Shown in pieces: positions 3,563 through 57,573 of a stretch of 64,000 nt of DNA. This DNA is from Escherichia coli. Lineage in GTDB: Bacteria; Pseudomonadota; Gammaproteobacteria; Enterobacterales; Enterobacteriaceae. The stretch lies in the NCBI RefSeq assembly GCF_024700885.2, contig NZ_CP117014.1; one strand, given 5' to 3'. The position numbers were made by a program, and so were the translations under genes. Each line of letters starts with the position of its first letter. The first letter of the stretch is position 1. The notes beneath the pieces were generated by a model. It was not told the origin of the DNA, ran no database searches, and was given only the letters and a program-made list of their open reading frames with translations.

Positions 3563-4303
3563 TTACAAACCGCGTTTTTTGCGAATGCGCATTGATTTTT
3601 TGCGGTTGATATTCGCTACGGATGTATGTGCTTTGCGGCGTGCTTTTTTCAGCGCCTGTTTTTGCAATGACGTCATGCGGCGAGGACGCGGGCGTTTACG
3701 GATGATGGTTACCTTGCCATCACGAACCACTTTTTTACGTACCGCTTCCAGCATTGCGCTATCACCACCAGCAACGGTGTAAATGGCAATAGCTGTTTCC
3801 ATCATGTCGGTGTCGCTTTCGGAAAGAGCGTCATAAACACGTTCGGCAGCTGAGTCATCTTCATCGTCGATCATTTCGGTTACATCATCCTGATCAGCGC
3901 CAAGCGCAACAGCTGCATCAGCAAGAGCTGCGAGTGCATCGTTATAAGCATCGATTTGCTCATCGGTGAAATCGGTGTCTTCATCGATATCAGCCAGGCC
4001 AGCCATAGTGATTGCTAATGCATCAAATGAGTCAGCCTCCGGATCACCATCTTCAACCCAACCAGCAAGCATGGAAGCTGCCAGGCTGCGCATATCACCT
4101 TGTGCACGGGATTCAACCGCTTCCATCATCGCGGTTTCAATGTCGTCTTTGGGCTTTGGTTGAGTGTCCTTTCCTTTCTGTCCTGCGCTTTCCAGCATGG
4201 CGTTATCATTATTGTCCTGCGTGGATTTATCACCGCTTTCAAAGCAGCCAGAACCGAAAATCGCACGCATAAAAGGATCAGCAGTATAATTTTTCATATT
4301 CAA
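3563..4303 (-). CDS. Acidic virion protein with strongly basic C-terminal tail (246 aa)
   Basis: D/E-rich central region followed by K/R-rich C-terminus (KRPRPRR...RKKRGL); composition typical of internal or DNA-associated virion proteins. Confidence 0.35.
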   Translation of the reverse strand: MNMKNYTADPFMRAIFGSGCFESGDKSTQDNNDNAMLESAGQKGKDTQPKPKDDIETAMMEAVESRAQGDMRSLAASMLAGWVEDGDPEADSFDALAITMAGLADIDEDTDFTDEQIDAYNDALAALADAAVALGADQDDVTEMIDDEDDSAAERVYDALSESDTDMMETAIAIYTVAGGDSAMLEAVRKKVVRDGKVTIIRKRPRPRRMTSLQKQALKKARRKAHTSVANINRKKSMRIRKKRGL

Positions 4304-4340
4304 ACCTCTCTCCCCCGCATCATTTAGCGGGGGTTATAAA

Positions 4341-5999
4341 TCAGCGCATCAGAATTGGCTTACCGACGATTCGGCGAGCTGTACCGGTCGGACAAACAGA
4401 CCAGGACACTTCCCACAGATCGATGTCCTTTTGGACAACCTGAACAACGTATGGATCTTCACCCTGGGACTTGTCACGTGGAGTAACCAGCGCACCGGCT
4501 GCAACGTAACGGTCAAGCAATTCAGTCATTGCTTTCATTAGCGTTTCTTTGGTAATGCCATCCGGTTCGTGCTTAATCGCCTGAGCTACTTCATAGAAAT
4601 CTCTGGCGATGGCGTTCATCAAGGAAGACACATGCTGGAATCGCAGATAGTTGTTTTTGCTGTAAGTTGTTAAAGAGTCGTCAATGTAAACGGACCCGTC
4701 AGCAGCAACTGAAACTGGATTAATGCGCGCAAGAACGAACGCTTCACGATCAACTGCACCGATATTTGGAATTCGGGCAATGTTCTGTCGATCAATAATC
4801 GCGCGTGATATACCTGCCGGTGCGTAATGCCAACCACCAACATCCGGTACCAGCGCCACTCCTTTTGCCTTCGCTACGAATGCGTCGCAGCTAATGCCAT
4901 AGACGACATTCATTCCAGTGAAAGTATCTCGGCAGGAGAGTGGGAAGTAGTAACGGCTTGGTTGATGTGAGCCGCCAAAACTATGGCTTTTCGCTTCTGA
5001 AATAGCGTTTTCAGGTGTCTGGTTGCCCTTCAGGTCATAGAACATGTCTACGCGAACATCTTCAGCCAGCTTTTTGATTGCGGCTAAGGCGGATGCGTCA
5101 TAACAACCCAATGACAGCAATGCGGTGTAATTAACCTCTGAAGCTTCGAGAACCTTTAATGCTTCCAGATAGTCTGCAGCGTTAATTTCGGACAGATTTC
5201 CATCAGTACCACCTTCAAAAGCTACATCCTCAAAAATGAGTTGAGCAGCGGATGCTTCTGCATTATCTGCCAGTACGGCACCAATGCGAGAGGACTGGCT
5301 TTCAAGCAGTGTCGGAATCCATGCTGGTTGGCCCATGTCGTTGGTGCCTTCTGGATTGAAAGACACTTGGTGGCTTTCCAGCACCTCAATGGACCCATCG
5401 GTTTGTTTTTCTTTCAGCGTCAGCGTAAAGAGTTCGCTTTCTTCATCATCGCGAGTTAGTGATAACGTACGATTTTGAGATGCATCACCATCTTTGATGA
5501 AGAATAATGCCTTCTCTCCACCTTTAATCTGGGGCGTCTCTTTGGGTGTGAAGGTCACTGATTGAGTCGTTGCAGTTGAAGCAACACCAACGCTTAATGT
5601 GTCACCTGGATTTACTGTGGTTTCAGTAGGTTCAACGGAAAGTTCTTTGCTCGCCTTTGCCGCTTTTGCTTTGCCCACAACGGAAACAGAAATACCCGGC
5701 ACCTTCATGTCTTTAGCGCAAACTCGAACGACATATCCAGAGCCGCCTTTTACTGCACGCTCCACGTGGCGATATGGTTCAAATGCCGCGCCCTGGCGAG
5801 GGTGAATCGGTGAACCTAATACGCTTTGATAAGTCGTATCGTCAACTTTCAGTACCTTACCCGGTGCGCCACGACGCGATATTACAAGCCCAGCAAAGAC
5901 GGATGCGCCACCGCTGGTATTGGTGAGGGTAGCGTCAGCATTTACTGACATTACAGCAACGCCAGCTGCCTGCCCTACCGAAAAACTAATCTTATTCAT
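4341..5999 (-). CDS. Large virion structural protein (552 aa), possibly contractile tail sheath
   Basis: Large ORF in structural operon followed by a 163-aa tube-sized gene further downstream; identity unverified. Confidence 0.35.
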   Translation of the reverse strand: MNKISFSVGQAAGVAVMSVNADATLTNTSGGASVFAGLVISRRGAPGKVLKVDDTTYQSVLGSPIHPRQGAAFEPYRHVERAVKGGSGYVVRVCAKDMKVPGISVSVVGKAKAAKASKELSVEPTETTVNPGDTLSVGVASTATTQSVTFTPKETPQIKGGEKALFFIKDGDASQNRTLSLTRDDEESELFTLTLKEKQTDGSIEVLESHQVSFNPEGTNDMGQPAWIPTLLESQSSRIGAVLADNAEASAAQLIFEDVAFEGGTDGNLSEINAADYLEALKVLEASEVNYTALLSLGCYDASALAAIKKLAEDVRVDMFYDLKGNQTPENAISEAKSHSFGGSHQPSRYYFPLSCRDTFTGMNVVYGISCDAFVAKAKGVALVPDVGGWHYAPAGISRAIIDRQNIARIPNIGAVDREAFVLARINPVSVAADGSVYIDDSLTTYSKNNYLRFQHVSSLMNAIARDFYEVAQAIKHEPDGITKETLMKAMTELLDRYVAAGALVTPRDKSQGEDPYVVQVVQKDIDLWEVSWSVCPTGTARRIVGKPILMR

Positions 6000-6492: not shown

Positions 6493-8190
6493 TCACTTTT
6501 TTTCGTTAACCTTGCCTGTCAGCATGTCGATAGCACCTTCTTTGGCGCGAGTCAGACGCAGGCGGGTGAAGTAGTTTTCACCGTTGCGAGGATGTACTTC
6601 GTTGATGGCACTGCCCCAGAGAGTGGTACGGTTAACGAGAGACGGATTGGTTTCGTGCACGTAAGGGATTGCTGGGACTGCATCACCAGCAATCAGACCG
6701 GCTTTACCGATGCCTTCGCCACGCCCATAGAAGAAGATGTCATCCAGCCCGAAGTCATATCCCTGTGCCTGGAATTGCTCACAGACAGGTTGCGGCACTT
6801 CGTAAATACGAATCGTGCCAAACAGGGTGCCGATGTACTGTACATACGGCGACTGAACGTAACCTGGTGCGATCTGGAAGTGCTGTGGAGGCAGAGAGCG
6901 CAGGAAGTTCGCGGCGTCACCACCAGCAAAGCCGCCACGAATACCCGTTGTCAGGGTACGATTTGCCATTTCTTGAGACAGAGCGTTTACTACGTGACGC
7001 AGGAGGCCGACCCAGGACTCATAGTTTTGAGCTTCCGGCAGAGCCACATCAAATTCACGACCATAAACGGTATGGAATACCAGGGTGCGCAGACGCATGA
7101 TGTCGGTTTCATGGGAGATCCAGTTACGCATCGCGGAGAACTGAAGTGCCGCTAATTCAAGGCCGTGCTCACGGCTTAAATCGGATGCGGACATTACCGT
7201 GTGTTCGGAAGCAATTACGTACTGGGATGGACGAACTTCGTACTTACGCATAGCCTGGTTGATCACAGGAATCAGGCTTGGATTGCGCTCGATGTTAATT
7301 TCGACCTGAACAGCAATTTCAGTACCTTCTGGCGGAGCCTGGGTAAATGTAATGTCAATGACACCAGTGTCATAGGCAACTTTGGCAGTCGCTGAGAAAG
7401 CTTTACCTTTGCTGTCTTTAGCATTGAAATAAAGGTTGCCATCGCCGTCGTCAACTTTGGACGGTTTGCGGTTGATCAGCAGTTTGTTATAACCAGCGCG
7501 AAGCGGGCAGGATTGTCCCTCAAAATTTTGGATGTCGAACTGGAAGGTTTTGGTGCTGCCATCCCCTTTAGTGGAAAGGGTATACAGGCGCTTCATTTGA
7601 GAATAAACACCAGCTGACTGCATATTCAGTTCGTCACCTTGTTTGAAGGTGCCGAATTTTGTGCCTGCTACGTTGACCAGTTCATAAATATTTGACTCGT
7701 CACGATCACAAGGAACAAAAGTACAGGCATCACTGGTAGCAGCGCCCAGAGAGGCAGGCAGAATTAGAGCAGCATATTGAGCAACTTTCATTACGCCGTC
7801 AGAGCTACGCATTGATTGCGCGACAGACTCAAACATTGCCTTACCCGTGCCTTCGTGGGTATCACTGGCACATTCAGTCATCAGGCGCTCAAGAGCCATG
7901 TGTGCGTTCGCCAGGATGTCACTTGCCGGGTAATGACCATGTTGACGTTTATACTCATGCAGAGACATAGCCCACCCACCAGTGATCTGACGAGCGACCT
8001 CTGGATTTACGCCTTCAAACATAGGCACTTTCTGGATTGCTTTATCCAGGTTTTCCATCATTACTGCCTGGTCAGCAATCATGTTGCCTGCTGCATCGGT
8101 GGTCGGATCGACGGTCATAGCCATGACGCTTGCCGCCCGATTCATAATCTCGCGCTCGCGATCACGAGCTGGCTGAATGTTTTTATTCAC
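6493..8190 (-). CDS. Large virion structural protein (565 aa), possibly major head protein
   Basis: First and largest gene of the morphogenesis operon; dispersed motif copy upstream (8317-8335); P1 gp23-like by position only. Confidence 0.35.
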   Translation of the reverse strand: MNKNIQPARDREREIMNRAASVMAMTVDPTTDAAGNMIADQAVMMENLDKAIQKVPMFEGVNPEVARQITGGWAMSLHEYKRQHGHYPASDILANAHMALERLMTECASDTHEGTGKAMFESVAQSMRSSDGVMKVAQYAALILPASLGAATSDACTFVPCDRDESNIYELVNVAGTKFGTFKQGDELNMQSAGVYSQMKRLYTLSTKGDGSTKTFQFDIQNFEGQSCPLRAGYNKLLINRKPSKVDDGDGNLYFNAKDSKGKAFSATAKVAYDTGVIDITFTQAPPEGTEIAVQVEINIERNPSLIPVINQAMRKYEVRPSQYVIASEHTVMSASDLSREHGLELAALQFSAMRNWISHETDIMRLRTLVFHTVYGREFDVALPEAQNYESWVGLLRHVVNALSQEMANRTLTTGIRGGFAGGDAANFLRSLPPQHFQIAPGYVQSPYVQYIGTLFGTIRIYEVPQPVCEQFQAQGYDFGLDDIFFYGRGEGIGKAGLIAGDAVPAIPYVHETNPSLVNRTTLWGSAINEVHPRNGENYFTRLRLTRAKEGAIDMLTGKVNEKK

Positions 8191-10989: not shown

Positions 10990-11069
10990 TCTTCACCTCC
11001 TGGTTATCCTCCTATTGTCATCACTTTGTTATTTCGTCATTCAAACTGAGAGTAAAATTTCGGAATATT

Positions 11070-11231
11070 TTTGTATTCTCAATTCATCCTCAAATAAATC
11101 TCACTGTCAGACCATCATTCATTGGGTGATTAAGATATTCTCAAAATGAACTCAATAATCACTCTTTATTATCTCTTTTGGTGTGGATTTTTGGGTGCTT
11201 CTCTTTTAAAATTGCATTTTGATTCTCAAAT
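11070..11231. repeat. parC-like centromere: ~5 copies of (A/T)TTCTCAA(A/T) upstream of parM
   Basis: Repeats read at ~11075, 11087, 11136, 11150, 11221; located directly upstream of the ParM gene as in type II partition loci. Confidence 0.45.
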
Positions 11232-11255
11232 GTGTCTCAGAAGTGGAGCAAGAAG

Positions 11256-12212
11256 ATGCGCATTTTTATCGATGATGGTTCAACCAATATCAAAATGCTG
11301 TGGGAGCACGACGGGGAAACTCGCACTCACATCAGCCCTAACAGCTTTAAGCGCGGATGGTCAGCAACATTTTGTGCTGGCAAGCCGTTTAACTATGTCA
11401 TTGACGACGAAAAGTATTCGTATGATTTGATCTCGCCAGATGTTCTGCCGACGAATAACGTGGAATGGCAATACAGCCCGCTTAACGTCCTGGCTGTTCA
11501 CCATGCCCTGCTGACAAGTGGCATTGAGCCGCAGGAAGTAGAAATTGTGGTCACGCTGCCTCTGGCGGAGTTTTACGACGACGACGCGCAATACAATCTC
11601 GATAACATCGAGCGCAAGAAAGCCAGCCTTATGCGCCCCGTCACGCTGAATAAAGGCAATGTGTTCACGATTAAGAAAGTTACGGTACGACCGGAGTCTA
11701 TTCCGGCAGGAATTGGCCTGTGCGACAATCTGAACCCTGCCCATTCTATTCTTATCGTCGATTTGGGTGGAACTACCCTTGATGTTTCAATGGTCGCCGG
11801 GCAAATGACGGCAGTTTCCCGTGTTTTTGGCGATTCGAATCTTGGCGTCTCTCTGGTTACCAGGGAAGTAAGGCAAGCGCTTGCCAGAGCCAATACCGAA
11901 ACGTCAAATTACAATGTTGATCAGCTCATTATTAACCGCCACGATGAAGATTATCTGAATGACAATATCAATGACCCATCAGCGATTGGTGATGTGAAAA
12001 AGGCCATTGCCGCAAGCATTGACCGTCTGCGTACCCGCGTTCTTGATGTGATTGGCGACTTTAAAGGATATACGCATGTCATGGTGATCGGTGGTGGCGC
12101 ACCGCTGGTGGCAGATGCAATTCGCGAGCAAGTTAATATTCGTGATGACCGTTTCTTCGTGGCGGATGACCCGCAACTTGCTCTTGTTCATGGCCTGAAA
12201 GCAATCGGTTAA
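11256..12212 (+). CDS. parM: ParM actin-like plasmid segregation ATPase
   Basis: IFIDDGSTNIK phosphate-1 motif and full-length similarity to R1 ParM/StbA; ATG at 11256 with RBS (track ORF starts at upstream GTG 11232). Confidence 0.85.
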   Translation: MRIFIDDGSTNIKMLWEHDGETRTHISPNSFKRGWSATFCAGKPFNYVIDDEKYSYDLISPDVLPTNNVEWQYSPLNVLAVHHALLTSGIEPQEVEIVVTLPLAEFYDDDAQYNLDNIERKKASLMRPVTLNKGNVFTIKKVTVRPESIPAGIGLCDNLNPAHSILIVDLGGTTLDVSMVAGQMTAVSRVFGDSNLGVSLVTREVRQALARANTETSNYNVDQLIINRHDEDYLNDNINDPSAIGDVKKAIAASIDRLRTRVLDVIGDFKGYTHVMVIGGGAPLVADAIREQVNIRDDRFFVADDPQLALVHGLKAIG

Positions 12213-12218
12213 CGAGGT

Positions 12219-12563
12219 ATGTCCATGTCTCAGGAACGTAAGAAAGTGATGATTTATCTTCGCCCAGAGGCTTATGCCAATGAAAAGGCGGCGAGCGAGA
12301 AGATAAAAAAACATAGCGATATGGCAAGAACTGCATTGTTGGCAGGGCTTGCGCTGGGAGAAGTCGATAGCAGGCTTCCAGGATTACTGGCTTCCCTGCT
12401 GACCGAAGACAATAACCCGGAGCTGATCCGAAAAATGCTGGCATCCTTCCTGGAACTACCAGCTGCGGTTGAGGAGCGCCCTGCCTCCATTGAGCCAGTG
12501 AAGGAGCAAGTTGTTGCCAAAAGCGCGTCGGCGCGCAATCTGGCTGACTCTCTACCTGATTGA
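12219..12563 (+). CDS. parR: ParR-like centromere-binding adaptor
   Basis: 114-aa ORF 7 nt downstream of parM; size and position typical of ParR. Confidence 0.6.
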   Translation: MSMSQERKKVMIYLRPEAYANEKAASEKIKKHSDMARTALLAGLALGEVDSRLPGLLASLLTEDNNPELIRKMLASFLELPAAVEERPASIEPVKEQVVAKSASARNLADSLPD

Positions 12564-12583
12564 CAGAAGATGTGCTGGTTTAA

Positions 12584-12606
12584 GGCTGCAAATTGCAGCC
12601 TTTTTT
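12584..12606 (+). terminator. Rho-independent terminator after parR
   Basis: GGCTGCA-aat-TGCAGCC hairpin followed by TTTTTT. Confidence 0.6.
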
Positions 12607-12607
12607 G

Positions 12608-12730
12608 TGCCTTAATGGTGTCTAATTAGTGTTGAACTGGCACCAGTTAGGTGCTGTTATGGTGCAATTTTGTATCTGGTTCCAATTTAGGGCTGATTTC
12701 GTGTTAAATAGGATGCAATATAAGGTGTAT
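12608..12730. repeat. Centromere-like boxes (GGTGCAATT / GGTTCCAATT / GGATGCAAT) upstream of the ParA-like gene
   Basis: Related 9-11 bp boxes at ~12616, 12637, 12660, 12677, 12710; a similar set recurs downstream at 13790-13885. Confidence 0.4.
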
Positions 12731-12850
12731 TTGGTCTGATTGATGTTATACTTTGCCAAACATTCATGACTCCATTATAGAGCCTGTCCCGCATCAAAAA
12801 GGCTCTTATCTGGAACCGTTTTGATACCAAAATCACACCGAGGAACGGAT

Positions 12851-13492
12851 ATGATTATATTGGTAGTCAGCCAAAAAGGTGGCTGTGGAAAATCAACCAC
12901 AAGCGTAAACATCTGTGCGGAGCTTGCCCGCGCAAATAAGGATGTAGTGTTACTAGATGCAGACAAGCAAGGAACAGCTGCCCGCTGGGCAGCTGACCGT
13001 AACACGGCAGAGGTTTCTCCTGTAATTCATTGTGTCCAGAAGTTTGGTAATATTCGAGAAACACTTCTCGATCTGGATAAGCGTTATGAATTTGTTGTTG
13101 TTGATACAGCCGGGCGCGATAGCAAAGAGATGCGTACAGGCATAACCGCTGCAGATATTGTGTTGGTCCCATTCAGACCATCTCAACCAGATTTAGACAC
13201 GCTGGCACACTTTGTTGAAGTGTTTGAAGAGGCTTTGGACCTGATGCCTAATCCTAGCATTAAGGCGTTCGCAGTCTTAACAATGGCCCCATCCAATCCG
13301 GTTGTGAATGAAACCAATGAGGCCAAAGAGTACCTGGCTGAATATCCGCAACTGAAGTTGCTGAAAACCATCATTCGTGATCGTAAGGTTTACCGCGATT
13401 GCATGGCTGAAGGGAAGGGCGTTGTTGAGATGGACAACGGGAAAGCTAAAGGTGAAATCCAGATGTTGGTTAAGGAGTTATTAAGTGATTAA
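12851..13492 (+). CDS. ParA/Soj-family partition ATPase (small type Ib)
   Basis: Deviant Walker A KGGCGKST near N-terminus; ATG at 12851 with GAGGAA RBS. Confidence 0.8.
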   Translation: MIILVVSQKGGCGKSTTSVNICAELARANKDVVLLDADKQGTAARWAADRNTAEVSPVIHCVQKFGNIRETLLDLDKRYEFVVVDTAGRDSKEMRTGITAADIVLVPFRPSQPDLDTLAHFVEVFEEALDLMPNPSIKAFAVLTMAPSNPVVNETNEAKEYLAEYPQLKLLKTIIRDRKVYRDCMAEGKGVVEMDNGKAKGEIQMLVKELLSD

Positions 13493-13772
13493 GCCTCGTA
13501 AATCGGTAAAAGCCCCCGAAGTAAAAGACCCCGATCTTGAACGCCGAATTGAGGATTTTGCAAGTAAGGCTGATTTGGTGCCGGGTGAGCAACCAGAAGA
13601 CAACAAAGTGCTCGATAAGGACGCTCCACGTGATTTTAAATCTATTCGTGTTGGTTTCAATGAATACGAGTACCAGGTACTTGATGCGTTGAGCAAAAAG
13701 CATAATCGCAGCAAATTGAATATGATCCGCCATGCTATCCTCATGTTAGCGGAGTCTGAGGAAGCAAAATAA
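13485..13772 (+). CDS. ParG-like small centromere-binding protein (putative RHH)
   Basis: 95-aa basic protein overlapping the ParA stop; arrangement typical of ParF/ParG-type loci. Confidence 0.5.
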   Translation: MIKPRKSVKAPEVKDPDLERRIEDFASKADLVPGEQPEDNKVLDKDAPRDFKSIRVGFNEYEYQVLDALSKKHNRSKLNMIRHAILMLAESEEAK

Positions 13773-13789
13773 AGTCTTTCAGGTTGGTT

Positions 13790-13885
13790 TTAGAACTTAA
13801 AAAGTCTTGAACCAAAGGTGCACCAATACACCACTAATTTGGTGCACCTTTACATCCTTTTTGGTTCCAATTGTGTACCATTTGT
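13790..13885. repeat. Second set of centromere-like boxes downstream of ParG-like gene
   Basis: GGTGCACCAAT, TTGGTGCACC, GGTTCCAATT, GTGTACCATT at ~13818-13883. Confidence 0.4.
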
Positions 13886-14040
13886 CATTAATTTACTTAT
13901 GCGCAAAAGTGGGCTTCATGAAAAAGCTCATTATTGAAATAACGATAGAAAGTAATTTCTAATCAACTAGTGGTTGTCAGCCTATTCGGCTTATAAGATC
14001 ATACGCTGTTATACGTTGTTTACGCTTTGAGGAATCCACA

Positions 14041-15702
14041 ATGAGTGAGGCAGAAGCCCGCCCGACTAACTTTATTCGTCAGATCATCGATGAAGATCTG
14101 GCCAGTGGTAAGCACACCACAGTACATACCCGTTTCCCGCCGGAACCGAATGGCTATCTGCATATTGGTCATGCGAAATCTATCTGCCTGAACTTCGGGA
14201 TCGCCCAGGACTATAAAGGCCAGTGCAACCTGCGTTTCGACGACACTAACCCGGTAAAAGAAGATATCGAGTACGTCGAGTCGATTAAAAACGACGTTGA
14301 ATGGTTAGGTTTTCACTGGTCTGGCAACATCCGTTACTCCTCCGATTATTTTGACAAACTCCATGCCTATGCTGTTGAACTGATCAACAAAGGCCTGGCG
14401 TATGTTGACGAACTGACGCCGGAACAGATCCGCGAATACCGCGGCACCCTGACGCAGCCGGGTAAAAACAGCCCGTACCGCGACCGCAGCGTTGAAGAGA
14501 ACCTGGCGCTGTTCGAAAAAATGCGTGCCGGTGGTTTTGAAGAAGGTAAAGCCTGCCTGCGTGCGAAAATCGACATGGCTTCGCCGTTTATCGTGATGCG
14601 CGACCCGGTGCTGTACCGCATTAAGTTTGCTGAACATCACCAGACTGGCAACAAGTGGTGCATCTACCCGATGTACGACTTCACCCACTGCATCAGCGAT
14701 GCGCTGGAAGGTATTACGCACTCTCTGTGTACGCTTGAGTTCCAGGACAACCGTCGTCTGTATGACTGGGTACTGGACAACATCACCATTCCTGTTCACC
14801 CGCGCCAGTACGAATTTTCGCGCCTGAATCTGGAATACACTGTGATGTCCAAGCGTAAGCTGAACCTGCTGGTGACCGACAAGCACGTTGAAGGCTGGGA
14901 TGACCCGCGTATGCCGACCATTTCCGGTCTGCGTCGTCGTGGTTACACTGCGGCTTCTATTCGTGAGTTCTGCAAACGCATCGGCGTGACCAAGCAGGAC
15001 AACACCATTGAGATGGCGTCGCTGGAATCCTGCATCCGTGAAGATCTCAACGAAAATGCGCCGCGCGCAATGGCGGTTATCGATCCGGTGAAACTGGTTA
15101 TCGAAAACTACCAGGGCGAAGGCGAAATGGTCACCATGCCGAACCATCCAAACAAACCGGAAATGGGTAGCCGTCAGGTGCCGTTTAGCGGTGAGATTTG
15201 GATCGACCGCGCCGATTTCCGCGAAGAAGCTAACAAGCAGTACAAACGTCTGGTGCTGGGTAAAGAAGTGCGTCTGCGTAATGCTTACGTCATTAAGGCT
15301 GAACGCGTGGAGAAAGATGCCGAAGGCAATATCACCACCATCTTCTGTACTTATGACGCCGACACCTTAAGCAAAGATCCGGCAGATGGTCGTAAAGTGA
15401 AAGGCGTTATTCACTGGGTGAGCGCGGCACATGCGCTGCCGGTTGAAATCCGCCTGTACGATCGTCTGTTCAGCGTGCCGAACCCAGGTGCTGCGGATGA
15501 TTTCCTGTCGGTGATTAACCCGGAATCGCTGGTGATCAAACAGGGTTTTGCTGAACCGTCGCTGAAAGAAGCGGTAGCGGGTAAAGCATTCCAGTTTGAG
15601 CGTGAAGGTTATTTCTGCCTCGACAGCCGCCATTCTACGGCGGAAAAACCGGTATTTAACCGCACCGTTGGGCTGCGTGATACCTGGGCGAAGTTAGGTT
15701 AA
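14041..15702 (+). CDS. glnS: Glutaminyl-tRNA synthetase
   Basis: 553-aa class I aaRS with HIGH (LHIGHAKS) and KMSKS-like (VMSKR) motifs; essentially indistinguishable by eye from enterobacterial GlnRS; own terminator. Confidence 0.95.
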
Positions 15703-15726
15703 TAGGTATTTCGCCACATAAAAAAG

Positions 15727-15753
15727 TAAACGCCGCTACTGCGGCGTTTTTTA
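15727..15753 (+). terminator. Rho-independent terminator after glnS
   Basis: AAACGCCGC-tact-GCGGCGTTT hairpin followed by T-tract. Confidence 0.65.
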
Positions 15754-17979
15754 CTTCATTATTGCAATTATATCGTTAGCAACTACACGTGTTGACGCCT
15801 TGCAGGACACCGACCGTCTGGCTGCCATATGATGTACTTTAAACCCGTTTCGTTCATATAGTTCACGGATGTTTGGCGCACCACTATTTGTTATCACTAC
15901 CTTAGCGCCGCGCTGGTGGGCTTCCACCAATAGAGATACCAGCCGTTTCTGTTCGTCGAAACGGAAGCTATTTCCTGAATAACTGGTAAACCCTTCTGTA
16001 TCCGGCAGCGGTTCATACGGCGGATCGCAAAAAATCACATCGCCTTCACCAGCCGCCTCGATGACGCCAGCAAAGTCACCTGATACAAAGGACGTGTTTT
16101 TGAGTACGTCATCAGCCAAAAATGCCTCCATCTCTGCATGTGGGAAGTAGGGCGCTTTGTATTTGCCATACCCCACGTTGAACTCGCCATTTTGGTTGTA
16201 CCGCGTTACGCCATTAAAACAGTGCCGATTAAGGTACAAAAAGGCGGCAGCATGATGTAGCTGGTCATACTTTCCTCTGTTAAATGCCTCGCGCACTTCG
16301 AGGTAAGCGTCAGCGTTGTTGTAATTTTTGAAAAAACTATATGCCAGCGTGACGAGCGAATGTCCCTCTCGCTGCAATGTCTGATAGAAGTTAATCAGGT
16401 CACCGTTAATATCATTAAGCAGGTTGTGGCGAAATCCTGCATTCGTAAATACGGAACCGCCACCAACGAATGGTTCTATTAACCGCTTGCCGTGTGGTAG
16501 ATGCTCAAGCACTGTAGGCAACTCTGAGAATTTACCGCCTACCCATTTGAATATTGGGCGTTCATATTCATCCGGAGTCCGGAGTTTTCTTGTGTAGGTA
16601 ATGGTATTTATTGTTTTTTGCTGTTTATCCGCTACGGTCGCAAGAATGCGACACCCTATCCATTGCATAACAGGAACTGCCATGCTGTTGCCGATCGCTT
16701 TGTAACGCGGTCCGTCAGCTGCAAGCATCGCGGCCTCTTCTTCGCTTAAATCTGGATAGTGATTGCGAAGGTATGCCAGTTCATCTGAAGAAACTTTTTT
16801 ACGCTTTTCCGTAGGGATCAACGTGTGCCCGTCAGGAAAGCCCTGCAGGCGTTCGCACTCGACAGGCGTTAAGCGACGTACTGCCACTCCGACGTTCGCA
16901 CTGTCAAAAACAGCCAGGTCGGTTGCATCCTTAAAATCTCTGGCCTTGACCGTGGAAGCCGCCTCATCATCCGCATACTCACCAAATGCTACCATCCGGT
17001 AAGCACCGACAAGCCCACTTCCGCGCTGTGAAAAAATCTCCTGGTTGCTTGCACCCGTCCCGCCGGTATTGTGCGATCGGGCAAGTGTCGGGTGAGGATT
17101 TACAGGGTTATCCCAATGGCTCCCGCTTTTAATGCCATTTCCAACATTTCCGGCAACTTCCTTCCCCTCGCCTCTGCTCGGCGCAATATCCCGGCGCACG
17201 CCTTCGAACTCAAAAAGTACCGTTGCGGGATCGAGGTCTGTTCGAGCACTTGCGACAACAAACACGCGTCGGCGTCGTTGTGCCACTCCGAAGTATTGGG
17301 CATCAAGTATTCTCCAGGCCACCTTTCGCTGCGGTCCATAAATACAACCACACTGCGGCCACTTTGGAGCATGGCAACCGGTTTTGCCATCCCACCGCCA
17401 GAACGCGTTACTTTTTCCTGATTCAGGTCGATCACCTGGTTCAAATGGTGCATCTTCTCCAGCCAATCCGGCAAGGAAACATCCGAAGGCGTTATCTGCC
17501 GATGACAGGACTCCTGGGACATTTTCCCAGACGATAACTGTCGGTTTGAGGAAGGACTCAGACCGTTTGTCGTCAATTGCATTTGCAAGCTCCACATACT
17601 TCAAAGTTAGCGCGCCGCGCTCATCATCAAGCCCACCACGTAATCCCGCGATACTGAATGCCTGACAAGGTGTTCCCCCGACGAGCACATCAGGGGATTC
17701 GATTTCCCCAGCCAGGACTTTTTTGGCAAGTTTTGTCATATCGCCAAGGTTGGCGATATGAGGCCAGCGGTGCGCAAGAACGGCAGATGGAAAAGGCTCA
17801 ATTTCAGCAAACCACGCCGGACGCATACCCAACGGTTCCCAGGCAATGCTCGCGGCTTCAATTCCACTGCAAACTGAACCATATCGAAGGTTAACGTTCT
17901 GCTTCACCGCCAATGGCCTCCACCAGCGCGTTAAACAGTGCAGATAATTCGCCCGTAAAGAGCACGAAATCAGCATCAA
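15751..17979 (-). CDS. dmt: Bifunctional DNA methyltransferase: N-terminal C5-cytosine (Dcm-type) plus C-terminal N6-adenine (Dam-type), P1 Dmt-like
   Basis: Motifs [22 protein letters not shown] in N-terminal half; DPPY and Dam-like region in C-terminal half; start uncertain, ORF overlaps rdgC 3' end by ~88 nt. Confidence 0.8.
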
Positions 17980-18796
17980 ATCGTTGTGCTACATCCTCCC
18001 GGTCGATATCGTCATTCTGGTCATAGAGATCATCACAGAATGTCAGGGCTTTGATACTCATATCATCGTTGACTCTGAACGACGCGCGTTCCATCCAGTT
18101 AATTGCAACGGTCGTAGCTACTTTCCCCGCCTCAATGTGAGACATAATCTCGTCGGACTGTAGATCAACTTTGTTGCAGCGAACGGCACCACCATTATCG
18201 AGCAGACCCTTTAATGTGGCGTCTTCACCTGCTGTAAATCCGGCAGGGAAGCCGCTTTTAAACCACTCGGTCATTGTAATTTCCAGCGGTTCGCGTGGTG
18301 TGAATGGAATGACAGGCAGGCTGCCGAGCGATTTTCGCAATAAAGCCAGCTGGTCCTCTGCCTTTTTGGCGCTGCTTGCCTCAACGAATACCAGATGGTT
18401 GCTGCGGTCGATCAGGATTTTGGCAAGTGATTTTCTCGTGAACGCGCGAGGCAAAAGTGAATGCAGGACTTCATCTTTAAGACTGTCTCTTTCCGTTTTC
18501 TTCAGCTTGCGGGCTTGCTCTTCTTCGAGTTTCAGGACTTTTTTCTGCAACTCTTCCTTGAGCACCTGCGAGGGGAGAATTTTTTCTTCTCGCTTATGCT
18601 GTATTAGCAGAAAACCCTGGTATTCATGTGTGAGGTTGTCACCAAGAACGGAGGTCCAACCAGCTTTAGCCATATCCTGAGAACCGCATGGGGTAAACAC
18701 AAACTTGCTAAGGGCTGCATTTACTTCTGCAGTATCCCAGCTAACTTCGCGTGAAAGACGATAGATGAAGATATTTTTGAAAGCGACTGATCTCAT
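17891..18796 (-). CDS. rdgC: Recombination-associated protein RdgC homolog
   Basis: 301 aa collinear with E. coli RdgC ([40 protein letters not shown]); ATG start, motif copy ~35 bp upstream. Confidence 0.8.
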
Positions 18797-18807
18797 TTCT
18801 CACCATT

Positions 18808-18841
18808 TGTGTTAGAAAATACGCGTTAATTATCTAACACA
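18808..18841. promoter_or_regulatory. Palindromic operator-like site TGTGTTAGAAAA-N-TTATCTAACACA in the rdgC promoter region
   Basis: GTTAGA-N16-TCTAAC read directly; same architecture at 32812-32829 and 35654-35681. Confidence 0.45.
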
Positions 18842-18855
18842 AATGGGTGCATTTT

Positions 18856-19509
18856 CTATCCTTTCTTGAAATCGAAGTTGCCAGCAGTGGCCTGAAAGGT
18901 TCCCCCTGCCTTGAAAGCTATGTCCCCGTTAGCGGTGACAGCAATATTTTCCCCATTAACATTGATGTTGTTGGCTGATTTGACGTTAACACTCCCTCCT
19001 GCATTCACGATTACATCAGCCGGACCAATGATATATATCTGCCCGGACTCATTCATGCCAATCCTTGAGCCTGCTGCCGTATTGGCAATTTCATAGCCGC
19101 CACCAGCAGTTCGTACTTCAAGAATATTGTTGCGGTGAATAACGAAGTCTTTCGTTGCTGAGATTTGGGGGCGGGGAGGTGCTCCATCTACTTCCGGCGG
19201 CGTCCAGCCGTTGCCTTTGCCAGATGCTTCTGGTGCAACGTTTGGAATTCCTCCCGGTGCATCCTGAGCGGCACCAACTATCATTGGGCGTCTGGTGTCT
19301 ATTCGACCGTTAACATCTAAATAAGGAAACTCTACCCAGACCAGGTCACCTTTGACTGTGGGTACAAAAGCGTTTCCGATGGGTAACAGGTATTCCGCCC
19401 AGGGTAGATCGTCATCAGGAACGCCATTCCAGTCAGGTAAAACACGGACTTGAGCACGCATAAGCCCTGCCGGGTGCACAGTTCCAACAATTTGCGCTCT
19501 ACGCTTCAT
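18856..19509 (-). CDS. Baseplate spike/hub protein (gpV-like OB-fold N-terminus, beta-helical C-terminus)
   Basis: N-terminal pattern resembling phage baseplate assembly protein V; C-terminal NINVNGENIAVTANG repeats. Confidence 0.45.
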   Translation of the reverse strand: MKRRAQIVGTVHPAGLMRAQVRVLPDWNGVPDDDLPWAEYLLPIGNAFVPTVKGDLVWVEFPYLDVNGRIDTRRPMIVGAAQDAPGGIPNVAPEASGKGNGWTPPEVDGAPPRPQISATKDFVIHRNNILEVRTAGGGYEIANTAAGSRIGMNESGQIYIIGPADVIVNAGGSVNVKSANNINVNGENIAVTANGDIAFKAGGTFQATAGNFDFKKG

Positions 19510-56278: not shown

Positions 56279-56354
56279 TGGTGGCCCCTACCGGACTTGA
56301 ACCGGTGACCGTGCGATTATGAGTCGCCCGCTCTAACCACTGAGCTAAAGGGCC
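56279..56354 (-). tRNA. tRNA with CAU anticodon (Ile2/Met-type)
   Basis: Reverse complement gives 76-nt cloverleaf ending CCA, anticodon loop CTCATAA; very similar to E. coli ileX from memory. Confidence 0.8.
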
Positions 56355-56783
56355 AGATTACTGTTAATTACGCTTACGCTTTTTGCCAGAACCGCGTAAG
56401 GCTTTTGCCGCTTGCTCTACCCCGTATGCAACCACCAGCAGAAACAATAATGTCCACTCCGGGTTTTTATCGGCAAACGCCCAAAAATCCATCACTTGCA
56501 GCCACCTTTTAAGACAAAACGCCATTGCTGTTAGGTTGCGGTGCCGGGCGCCTCCCGGTGACGTTAACCAGTTAACAATTAACGCCGGATCACTTATGGA
56601 TTCTCGTTACGCCAGTAAAAAGACCACCTTTACTGTTTTAACTGTTCCGCGTGCGCTTAGCCGCATTCACCGCAATGGTAAGAGCATTTGGCTGACTGGG
56701 CGGCGATGACGCCTGTACGCATTTGGTGATCCGGTTCTGCTTCCGGCATTCGCTTAATTAGCCAAATACCCTTAATGTTGCAC

Positions 56784-56870
56784 TGGCGGAGAGTAATGGA
56801 ATCGAACCATCATCGCTTGCGCAATGGGACGGTTTTCAAGACCGCTTGAGCACCATGCTCCCTACTCTCC
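56784..56870 (-). tRNA. tRNA-Ser (UGA), type II with long variable arm
   Basis: 87 nt, acceptor GGAGAGT/ACTCTCC, anticodon stem GCGGT/ACCGT, loop CTTGAAA, T-loop TTCGATT, 3' GCCA. Confidence 0.7.
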
Positions 56871-57324
56871 CGTTATTGTGGCGACCGGTGCTGATCTCCG
56901 GCTTGCGGTTATTTCAGACTCTCACGGGCGTTTAATTGCCCCGCCGAACAGCTCTTTTCCGCAATAGCTGCAATGTCTTTCGCGCATCAGCCTGCGCATT
57001 CACCACAATGTTGAGAACACTGGTTGTCACGCTGCAACGCAACATTTATTCGTAGATTGGGATATGACCCCGTTACGCCAGTGTTCTCAACGTTGTAGTG
57101 CCGGTTACGGTTCCGGCCAGACCTCTTCCTCAACGGGGTGTTCTCCATACGGACTACCGTTTATTGGTCGTTCCTGCGGTTTATGTTGTGAAGCCAGATG
57201 CTTATCTTCTGGTTGCTTCAAAGAGCTGCACTTCATCACAACGGTAAGAGCATTTATGGCTCGCATCGCGGGAAAAAGCCCACGGTAGAGAGTCGAACTC
57301 TACAAATGCTCTTACCTGTTGTGT

Positions 57325-57400
57325 TGGTGCCGGTTAACGGGATCGAACCGCTGACCATTCGCTTACAAAGCGACTGCTCTACCAACTGAGCTAAACCGGC
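57325..57400 (-). tRNA. tRNA-Thr (UGU)
   Basis: 76 nt, acceptor GCCGGTT/AACCGGC, D-arm GCTCAGTTGGTAGAGC, loop TTTGTAA, T-loop TTCGATC, CCA. Confidence 0.8.
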
Positions 57401-57404
57401 AATT

Positions 57405-57491
57405 TGGTGGGGAGTGATGGAGTCGAACCACCCGAGTCGCAATGACAGTAGATTTACAGTCTACCCCGCTACCCCTACGGACTAACTCCCC
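57405..57491 (-). tRNA. tRNA-Tyr (GUA), type II
   Basis: 87 nt, acceptor GGGGAGT/ACTCCCC, anticodon stem GTAGA/TCTAC, loop CTGTAAA, CCA. Confidence 0.75.
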
Positions 57492-57496
57492 TAAAT

Positions 57497-57573
57497 TGGC
57501 GATGGTGGGTGGATTCGAACCACCTACCGAAAGCTTAGAAGGCTGCTGTTCTATCCTACTGAGCTACACCATC
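57497..57573 (-). tRNA. tRNA-Arg (UCU)-like
   Basis: 77 nt, acceptor GATGGTG/CACCATC, loop CTTCTAA as in E. coli argU, T-arm GGTGG-TTCGAAT-CCACC, CCA; one mismatch in anticodon stem. Confidence 0.6.

Follow-up and report, generated by a model that had tools for sequence, protein, structure and literature searches.

A host-type glnS gene carried as a putative moron-type cassette on D6-like phage-plasmids

Why should a phage-plasmid of Escherichia coli carry a second copy of glnS, the essential host gene for glutaminyl-tRNA synthetase (GlnRS)? The question arises from a 64,000-nucleotide stretch of E. coli contig NZ_CP117014.1 (assembly GCF_024700885.2), hereafter the window, in which an earlier sequence-only reading had singled out positions 13773-15753, exactly the interval from the first base after the stop of a parG-like gene through the stop of a methyltransferase gene. 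Judged from its sequence relationships, the element is a D6-like (P1-related) phage-plasmid and persists outside the chromosome as a replicon of its own. Identity of the window to the E. coli plasmid NZ_CP035876.1 is 100%, and the records matching it are 87-97-kb non-mobilizable plasmids of replicon cluster 1704. With window positions 11000-19000 as an 8-kb query, phage D6 showed 97.7% identity over the 84% covered, and in the D6 annotation the locus is flanked by P1-like structural genes (capsid, baseplate and tail genes similar to P1 23, 5, 6, 24 and 7). The par module beside glnS was present in 93 of 5,426 complete E. coli genomes, on plasmids in all 93, and a search of the chromosomes of the same 5,426 genomes for D6-type par modules, indicative of integration at chromosomal glnS, found none. 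The junctions of the glnS cassette recur in 69 complete E. coli genomes, and identical junctions are found in plasmid records of E. coli, Salmonella, Shigella and E. fergusonii, about 100 in all.

That reading knew of no aminoacyl-tRNA synthetase (aaRS) on P1-like phage-plasmids, and the novelty this implied does not hold: orf62 of phage D6 (NC_050154.1 / MF356679.1) is annotated as 'glutaminyl-tRNA synthetase, similar to E. coli GlnS'. The D6 genome reportedly goes back to Gilcrease and Casjens in 2018. D6 orf62 has the same locus, junctions, promoter, terminator and C-terminal WAKLG* as the window copy, with a coding sequence 98.2% identical and a protein different at 2 aa; the 29 nucleotide differences are concentrated towards the 3' half. 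The neighbouring methylase is one P1-like Dcm-Dam fusion in the window, whereas it is encoded by two ORFs in D6. A further relative, the D6-like prophage pYU39_89 of Salmonella Typhimurium ST213, carries a cassette that is 98.4% identical to that of the window and 2 nt away from that of D6; the host of the ST213 prophages is Salmonella, that of the present element E. coli. In 2019, glnS was described in all D6-like genomes examined and termed a moron that might contribute to host fitness or to maintenance of the plasmid (PMC6799933). As the gene has thus stood in public annotation and the literature since 2018-2019, its presence is not a discovery; no functional study of D6-type glnS after 2019 was found in the literature searched. 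What is already known is the glnS cargo of D6-like phage-plasmids, and what we add are the limits of the cassette, its REP-less end, empty sites, indications of an old capture, and mosaicism.

The encoded enzyme matches the NCBIfam equivalog TIGR00440 with 1067 bits (cutoff 425.8) over the full profile (1-524). It contains the class Ic catalytic domain PF00749 (aa 28-337) and both anticodon-binding beta-barrel domains, PF03950 (aa 340-439) and PF20974 (aa 456-528). The class I signature HIGH lies at aa 41-44 (14161-14172) and VMSK, the GlnRS form of KMSKS, at aa 268-271 (14842-14853), in agreement with the full-length class I aaRS described previously from the letters. The similarity to enterobacterial GlnRS noted at that time was likewise borne out, as only five conservative substitutions (V97I, Q106K, I112V, D510E, V552L) and the absence of the last residue, Glu, separate the protein from K-12 GlnRS. 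Its C-terminus (...WAKLG*) is specific to phage-plasmid copies, while chromosomal glnS ends ...WAKVGE*. The best PDB matches are structures of E. coli GlnRS, e.g. 1o0b and 1gtr, and with five conservative differences from this crystallised enzyme the window protein should charge tRNA-Gln.

The ORFs on both sides of glnS are as the sequence-only reading placed them, a ParA/ParG-like operon upstream and a Dmt-like methyltransferase gene downstream (Table 1). The ParA ORF scored 162 bits with the ParA family partition ATPase model NF041546, under its 180-bit cutoff, and D6 annotates this pair as 'ParA-like partition protein' and orf61. The methyltransferase, about 83% identical to dmt of P1 and P7, combines an N-terminal C5-cytosine domain (TIGR00675, dcm, 116 bits) with a C-terminal Dam-family N6-adenine domain (TIGR00571, dam, 246.6 bits over aa 474-739). 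Directly 3' of parG lies a repeat region whose inverted repeat has arms at 13814-13826 and 13839-13851 and the core GGTGCACC. These repeats are related to a motif at 12660-12688 upstream of parA, and motifs with a loose resemblance to them, GGTTCC and GTGTACC, occupy the corresponding intergenic site in glnS-less relatives. The first ~113 bp 3' of parG therefore probably belong to the partition module and not to the glnS insert, and the repeats would be a candidate centromere or operator.

Table 1 Features of the glnS locus and related genes in the window. Positions refer to the whole 64,000-nucleotide stretch.
Feature	Position	Strand	Remarks
ParA-type partition ATPase	12821..13492	+	upstream backbone neighbour of the cassette
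Small ParG-like ORF	13485..13772	+	overlaps parA; no family match
Repeat region 3' of parG	13813..13873	.	perfect 13-nt inverted repeat, then TTTTTGGTTCCAATTG
Left-end spacer of insert	13886..13953	.	68 bp; from alignments and blast
Chromosome-derived glnS promoter and leader	13954..14040	+	87 bp; K-12 homology begins at 13954
glnS promoter, -35 TTGTCA	13974-13979	+	identical to K-12
glnS promoter, -10 GATCAT	13997-14002	+	identical to K-12; 17-nt spacing from -35
Dam site GATC within -10 hexamer	13997	+	same in K-12
Shine-Dalgarno GAGGA of glnS	14029-14033	+	in the leader
glnS CDS, glutamine--tRNA ligase	14041..15702	+	553 aa; ORF call, family profiles, motifs
Native glnS Rho-independent terminator, right end of insert	15728..15755	.	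AAACGCCGC-TACT-GCGGCGTTT and T-run; found on both strands in terminator scan
Dmt-like DNA methyltransferase	15751..17979	-	742-aa fusion; downstream backbone neighbour
Five tRNA genes	56279-57573		basis of the earlier tRNA remark, confirmed

Within this frame, the cassette appears to span about 13886-15755 (~1.9 kb). The GC content is 50-54% within glnS and 40-48% in the flanks, and the nucleotide alignment to chromosomal glnS that had been proposed for finding the junctions bounds the K-12 homology at 13954 and 15698, with 95.9% identity. The ~270 bp of upstream sequence credited to the gene are present (268 bp), although only the last 87 bp of them (13954-14040) are homologous to the chromosomal glnS locus. 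The spacer to their left was seen only in glnS-bearing phage-plasmids and has no counterpart in K-12 or in relatives with an empty site; an E. fergusonii phage-plasmid matches window positions 13922-14040 at 85% identity. The predicted promoter of the cassette (TTGTCA-17-GATCAT, 13974-14002) shares its hexamers with the promoter region of chromosomal glnS, which has been studied by experiment. Chromosomal glnS is repressed by Dam methylation of promoter GATC sites, according to the account of Plumbridge and Soll (1987) given in PMC11741368.

The terminator claimed for the gene was found as a hairpin at 15728-15749 with a 9-bp GC-rich stem and a T-run, homologous to the native glnS terminator; such an own factor-independent terminator is expected of a moron. 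With an A-tract on its opposite side, it can serve the convergent methyltransferase gene as a terminator as well. We considered whether this hairpin is instead backbone of the methylase gene and rejected this, since the hairpin found here in relatives without glnS is another one (AAAGCCCC..GGGGCTTT) and the stem follows glnS in other Enterobacteriaceae. In chromosomes of Citrobacter and Enterobacter, matching stems lie 19-27 nt past the glnS stop; in those of Escherichia the distance is 67-198 nt, with REP elements between. One to three REP elements separate stop and terminator in every sampled Escherichia chromosome; the cassette has none. Compared with K-12 chromosomal glnS (b0680), the plasmid copy thus has the same enzyme, promoter hexamers with Dam site, ribosome-binding site and terminator stem, but is not in the company of nagE and chiP, has no REP elements and differs in the last codon pair. 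Taken together, the cassette reads as a moron-type independent transcription unit with a predicted promoter and terminator of its own and putative expression from the prophage.

As expected of such a moron, the flanking genes are adjacent in a relative without the insert. In an E. marmotae plasmid that lacks the cassette, only 135 bp separate parG from the methylase gene, and homology to the window ends at 13770 and restarts at 15727. Roughly 10-20% of plasmids that share the par module are without glnS, so the element does not need the gene; such relatives differ from the description of glnS in all D6-like genomes (PMC6799933). In a lineage of E. fergusonii phage-plasmids, the region is 87% identical to the window and glnS is intact (554 aa). 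The left junction is common to this ~13% diverged lineage and the window, which points to a single capture long ago. In an exact-protein look-up, the GlnRS of the E. fergusonii plasmids was found only on phage-plasmid contigs, and glnS nt 201-420 of the plasmid copy is ~8% diverged from every E. coli allele sampled. A donor scan of genome contigs gave E. albertii, one divergent 'E. coli' and many other enterics among the matches listed; chromosomes of Salmonella, E. fergusonii and E. marmotae were not among the matches listed.

The phage-plasmid copies are mosaics, formed through repeated gene conversion with chromosomal glnS. In pAPEC201603, nt 1-716 of glnS match the K-12 allele without a difference (Fisher 6e-9). 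D6 glnS is K-12/O157-like in its 3' half (Fisher 2e-10), and the 3' half of the window gene resembles another E. coli allele, RIVM_C037791 (Fisher 6e-8). Ongoing conversion in the present host was rejected: in two host-plasmid pairs, the plasmid gene and the chromosomal glnS of its own host differ at 43 and 63 sites, which indicates that conversion is episodic and not a continuous repair. The dN/dS of the window gene is 0.018 against K-12 (56 synonymous and 4 non-synonymous differences) and 0.02 against D6 (27 and 2, respectively). The cassette thus seems to be under strong purifying selection, although the low dN/dS is partly inherited from chromosomal alleles; imported tracts have already been purified on the chromosome, and the ratio alone is no proof of selection on the plasmid copy. 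The glnS genes of H140 and H158 were not accepted as pseudogenes, because their scattered 1-nt deletions, partly in homopolymer runs, are probably assembly errors. The glnS of pSa1423-160k resembles these apparent pseudogenes.

We consider it reasonably probable that glnS is a moron-type cassette, captured once, which gives the cell a second dose of GlnRS and may thereby confer a modest benefit on the carrier. An ancestor of the D6 lineage would have taken up a complete Escherichia-type glnS with its 87-bp sigma-70 promoter and leader and its native terminator, and the insertion would have placed it between the parA/parG operon and the dmt methylase gene. In the lysogen, host RNA polymerase would transcribe plasmid glnS constitutively, as it does the chromosomal copy, and the second, functionally equivalent dose of enzyme would charge host tRNA-Gln. 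Extra or back-up GlnRS could then modestly benefit the carrier cell and hence maintenance of the plasmid-prophage, by a route other than virion production or evasion of defence. The glnS-less relatives (10-20%) and the partly inherited dN/dS count against this account. We know of no benefit of doubled GlnRS in E. coli, and strong overproduction of the enzyme leads to mischarging. The element has two partition systems, and two toxin-antitoxin systems have been described on D6-like elements (PMC6799933), so an extra maintenance device is not obviously needed.

A related but unlikely explanation is that plasmid glnS has become the main source of GlnRS while the chromosomal copy is down-regulated, so that loss of the plasmid is costly and the gene acts as a maintenance device. 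The gene is indeed a plasmid paralogue of an essential chromosomal aaRS gene and adjoins partition modules, and such an addiction role was put forward for D6-like glnS by the authors of PMC6799933. The precedent is plasmid pBT1 of S. Typhimurium D23580, which likewise bears an additional copy of an essential class I aaRS gene, cysS; this copy was shown experimentally to replace the chromosomal gene functionally and is needed for normal growth, and the plasmid lowers expression of chromosomal cysS (Canals et al. 2019, PMC6333337). The likeness is limited, as pBT1 is not a phage-plasmid and its cysS is only 79% nucleotide-identical to the chromosomal gene, whereas phage-plasmid glnS is 96-98% identical to the chromosomal copy, has its promoter in common and has exchanged sequence with it. 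Moreover, once pBT1 had been cured, chromosomal cysS was expressed again and growth in LB matched that of the wild type (PMC6333337), which makes even this precedent one of weak addiction. Chromosomal glnS is near full length in 5,424 of 5,426 complete E. coli genomes (5,427 chromosomal places), and both carriers examined have an intact 554-aa chromosomal gene, so that essentially all carriers keep their own copy. This counts against addiction; as to a regulatory takeover, it speaks neither for nor against. Since the promoter hexamers are identical in the two copies and the proteins almost so, nothing obvious would silence only one of them.

It is also improbable that the gene is a neutral hitch-hiker, captured by accident and kept intact by gene conversion, with a 1.7-kb homology patch to the chromosome as its sole consequence. 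Conversion does occur, as seen from the mosaic tracts that match chromosomal alleles exactly; several relatives do without the gene, and the prophage as a whole may be selfish according to the authors of PMC6799933. Loss of the whole gene is, however, beyond the reach of conversion, and yet lineages ~13% diverged have kept the cassette and its junctions; a packaging size limit should favour the loss of 1.9 kb of useless DNA. The 43 and 63 differing sites in the plasmid-chromosome pairs also argue against continuous repair.

A role in the lytic cycle or in counter-defence is very unlikely. Extra GlnRS together with the five tRNAs might boost translation during phage growth, or keep tRNA-Gln charged when it or GlnRS is under attack by a system of the host or of a competitor, and the sequence-only reading had accordingly suggested translation capacity or evasion of a host system. 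Toxins that target tRNA exist, and aaRS genes, including GlnRS, occur in very large uncultured phages; these are deeply diverged (GlnRS about 50-57% identity), whereas the window copy is essentially a host allele. Neither suggestion gained support here. None of the tRNA genes of the element is for tRNA-Gln, Gln makes up 3.7% of the residues of the ORFs in the window (the E. coli average is about 4.4%) and CAG 57% of Gln codons, without enrichment, and the promoter is of the host housekeeping sigma-70 type with no phage-type signal. An enzyme with five conservative differences from that of the host would be equally sensitive to anything that targets GlnRS, and to our knowledge no E. coli defence system does so. 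Plasmid-borne resistant aaRS alleles such as the mupA IleRS are drug-resistant variants on mobile elements; a resistant or escape allele was rejected here, since the substitutions are few and conservative and the copies have repeatedly been homogenised with host alleles, contrary to the pattern expected of an escape variant.

Finally, nothing was found in favour of the outcomes that would have overturned the sequence-only reading, namely a chimeric assembly or chromosomal DNA mistaken for plasmid, and these can be dismissed with near certainty, given the same junctions across independent assemblies (69 E. coli genomes, about 100 plasmid records) and phage D6, a par module that is chromosomal in none of 93 genomes, and a WAKLG* end and REP-less terminator arrangement that differ from every sampled chromosomal copy.

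The favoured account, a cassette of modest benefit, leaves the function of glnS a tractable question, which bears on essential housekeeping genes as plasmid maintenance devices. The plasmid and chromosomal genes differ at about 2-5% of nucleotides, so that allele-specific expression can be measured, and the question is sharpened by the position of a Dam-sensitive native promoter next to a gene for a Dam-family methylase. There is a rather small chance that the 1.7-kb patch of 96-98% homology serves recombination with the chromosome of each new host, or that the cassette is an addiction module like that of pBT1. If recombination is the answer, the conversion tracts would be its footprint, and either transient Campbell-type integration at glnS or mobilisation and transduction of the nagE-glnS-chiP-fur neighbourhood could occur. 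The repeated exchange with the chromosome calls for caution in the use of glnS for sequence typing or phylogeny of carrier strains. If either of these two readings is true, an aaRS gene would be a functional part of phage-plasmid biology.

The open reading frame between the partition genes and the dmt-like methyltransferase gene encodes a glutaminyl-tRNA synthetase (GlnRS) by all tests applied. The NCBIfam equivalog TIGR00440 matches it with 1067 bits (cutoff 425.8), Pfam assigns it a class Ic catalytic domain and both domains for anticodon binding, and the class I motifs HIGH (aa 41-44) and VMSK (aa 268-271) are present. E. coli GlnRS structures were its top PDB matches. Compared to the K-12 enzyme there are five conservative substitutions (V97I, Q106K, I112V, D510E and V552L) and the terminal Glu is absent. 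The sequence-only reading was thus right to call the gene a host-type glnS, and it also named the neighbours correctly, as ORF calls and profile matches revealed a ParA-type ATPase and a small ORF upstream and a Dcm-Dam methyltransferase downstream. This glnS is a real and intact second copy of the host-type gene and is probably expressed.

Features of the glnS locus and its surroundings
Feature	Position	Strand	Remarks
Actin-like ParM/StbA gene	11232..12212		Small partner at 12219..12563
ParA-type ATPase gene	12821..13492	+	Upstream of glnS
Small parG-like ORF	13485..13772	+	Overlaps ParA-type ATPase gene
Promoter hexamers (-35 TTGTCA, -10 GATCAT)	13974-14002		Kept in the 87 bp upstream of glnS
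GATC within -10 hexamer	13997		
glnS ORF (GlnRS, 553 aa)	14041..15702	+	ORF call, TIGR00440, Pfam, motifs
Terminator hairpin stem	15728-15749		Same as K-12 glnS terminator stem
dmt-like Dcm-Dam fusion methyltransferase gene (742 aa)	15751-17979	-	Convergent with glnS
tRNA cluster (n=5: Met-CAT, Ser-TGA, Thr-TGT, Tyr-GTA, Arg-TCT)	56279-57573	-	

E. coli plasmid NZ_CP035876.1 matches the 8 kb around glnS at 100% identity, and phage D6 covers 84% of this query with 97.7% identity over that portion. In the D6 record, P1-like capsid, baseplate and tail genes are annotated on either side of the locus, and orf62 is described as 'glutaminyl-tRNA synthetase, similar to E. coli GlnS'. Among 5,426 complete E. 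coli genomes, 93 have the par module that adjoins glnS in the window, and no chromosomal par module of this type was detected. An assembly chimera and chromosomal flanks are both excluded, because identical cassette junctions recur in 69 complete E. coli genomes and the par module is plasmid-borne in all 93 carriers. P1, P7, SJ46 and RCS47 match this 8-kb query only in the dmt part, so the glnS cargo is a trait particular to the D6 lineage. Across 50,697 phage records, no cultured and complete phage genome other than D6 encodes a host-like GlnRS. A 1.6-kb piece submitted as a Salmonella phage aligns to aa 384-553 at 93.5%, and all further hits come from metagenomic contigs or from uncultured phages of very large size (~50-57% identity).

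The presence of glnS on D6-like phage-plasmids is already known, and the novelty claimed from sequence alone does not hold, since the D6 orf62 annotation and PMC6799933 precede it. That paper attributes the original observation to Gilcrease and Casjens 2018, regards the gene as a moron and, drawing a parallel to cysS on pBT1 of S. Typhimurium D23580, proposes that it may contribute to host fitness or to plasmid maintenance. In the literature searched, no functional follow-up on D6-type glnS was found. PMC6799933 places glnS in all D6-like genomes; this can be refined, as ~10-20% of plasmids sharing this par module are without it. We compared three such relatives around locus positions 6950-7100 (E. 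marmotae pRHBSTW-00605_3, E. coli 2021CK-00607 and S. dysenteriae 204/96; parAG identity 84-98%). The parAG of 2021CK-00607 is nearer to that of the window than is the parAG of a glnS-bearing E. fergusonii element; the glnS-less state of these relatives may therefore be derived, by loss or by a swap of modules, and not ancestral.

Homology to the K-12 chromosome extends from 13954 to 15698 (95.9% identity), that is from 87 bp 5' of the glnS ATG, a stretch which also keeps the ribosome-binding site, to a few bases short of the stop codon. The proposal that glnS has its own terminator was borne out by the hairpin stem. In K-12, ~200 bp of REP elements separate stop codon and terminator, whereas none are present there in the window. 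The stem lies 26 nt past the stop in phage-plasmids, 19-27 nt in Citrobacter, Enterobacter and one 'Escherichia sp.' genome, and 67-198 nt, with intervening REP elements, in E. coli and E. albertii chromosomes. REP number at this position varies among Escherichia chromosomes (3' flanks of loci L002, L008, L009 and L092-L094). The glnS-less relatives have another hairpin at the terminator position. In the E. marmotae plasmid the gap between parG and the methylase gene is only 135 bp, and homology to the window ends at 13770 and restarts at 15727. Repeats in the first ~113 bp past parG are related to the ones that precede parA, and this stretch is probably part of the partition module, not the insert; 13886-13953 is exclusive to glnS-bearing elements among the relatives compared. 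The insert, ~13886-15755, is a self-contained promoter-gene-terminator unit (GC 50-54% vs 40-48% in the flanks) and, on this D6-like phage-plasmid, a moron of the classical kind.

Two unlike partition systems, ParM/StbA and a ParA-type ATPase, each with its partner, lie side by side at 11232-13772. Related ~30-nt motifs (TGGTGCA...GGTTCCAATT) occur upstream of parA (12660-12688) and downstream of the parG-like ORF (13813-13873), the latter region with a perfect inverted repeat of 13 nt (13814-13826 / 13839-13851) around GGTGCACC; lying on both sides of the parAG operon, they are candidates for centromere or operator sites. The methyltransferase is a single fusion with ~83% identity to P1 and P7 dmt, whereas D6 has two separate ORFs, and window-D6 homology is interrupted from 16581 to 17891. 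Elements that are otherwise near-identical have had their methylase module swapped. On the D6-like plasmids of Survcare253 and 1EC213, the DNA adenine methylase gene beside glnS is flagged by RefSeq as a partial pseudogene ('missing N-terminus'). According to Plumbridge and Soll 1987, cited in PMC11741368 and borne out there by RNA-seq, chromosomal glnS is repressed when Dam methylates the GATC sites of its promoter, and plasmid glnS should inherit this regulation. The plasmid copy lies beside a Dam-family methylase gene, and we infer a possible link.

The E. fergusonii phage-plasmid is 87% identical to the window across the region. Since this diverged element has the same left junction (13922-14040, 85% identity), terminator arrangement and an intact glnS (554 aa), the capture seems single and old. 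Window glnS has 56 synonymous and 4 non-synonymous differences from K-12, and 27 and 2 from D6 (dN/dS ~0.02). Phage-plasmid copies are, furthermore, mosaics and not a clean clade (Fisher p, uncorrected): pAPEC201603 is identical to the K-12 allele over nt 1-716 and otherwise of phage-plasmid type (6e-9), the 3' halves of D6 and pYU39_89 are K-12/O157-like (2e-10), and that of the window is a few bases from the chromosomal allele of RIVM_C037791 (6e-8). A weaker signal (1e-3) marks pZ1323HEC0010-2 as E. albertii-like around nt 1300-1500, with 1-2 differences per 100 nt against E. albertii and 8-10 against E. coli alleles, which points to a passage through E. albertii or to exchange with it; its parAG is just 78% identical to that of the window. 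All E. coli and Salmonella phage-plasmid copies have the diagnostic ...WAKLG* end. Nucleotides 201-420 diverge by ~8% from every sampled E. coli allele and may be what is left of the original donor's sequence; this donor was not found among the matches listed in a contig scan. Plasmid glnS recombines repeatedly with chromosomal glnS, so that part of the low dN/dS is imported and is not evidence of selection on the plasmid copy. This exchange is episodic, as the copies in two host-plasmid pairs differ at 43 and 63 sites. Two seeming pseudogene copies look like assembly indel errors. The glnS of Salmonella pSa1423-160k (168.8 kb; locus 4001-5648) shows 91% identity, numerous indels and its first stop at codon 56, and most of the genes around it lack annotation; either the sequence is poorly assembled or this plasmid, of cointegrate size, bears a decaying copy.

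Addiction was assessed from the sequence of the chromosomal copy, which shows no decay, since near-full-length glnS is present in 5,424 of 5,426 complete E. coli genomes (5,427 chromosomal places) and intact (554 aa) in both carriers examined. Selection on translation capacity is unsupported, as the tRNA scan found no tRNA-Gln among the five tRNA genes and Gln makes up 3.7% of window ORF residues. The tRNA cluster lies ~40 kb from glnS, and AGA and AGG together reach ~13 per 1000 codons in window ORFs, a usage well above that typical of E. coli; tRNA-Arg(UCU) may thus match the codon usage of the element itself. Evasion of a host system is likewise unsupported, as the enzyme is essentially the host's and its repeated homogenisation with host alleles is the opposite of an escape variant.

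The best-supported reading is that plasmid glnS would be expressed constitutively in the lysogen, in host-like fashion, and would supply an extra or back-up dose of GlnRS, which may be of modest benefit to the carrier or to its maintenance of the plasmid. What our analysis adds to the known moron is the anatomy of the cassette and evidence of recurrent exchange between plasmid and chromosome.
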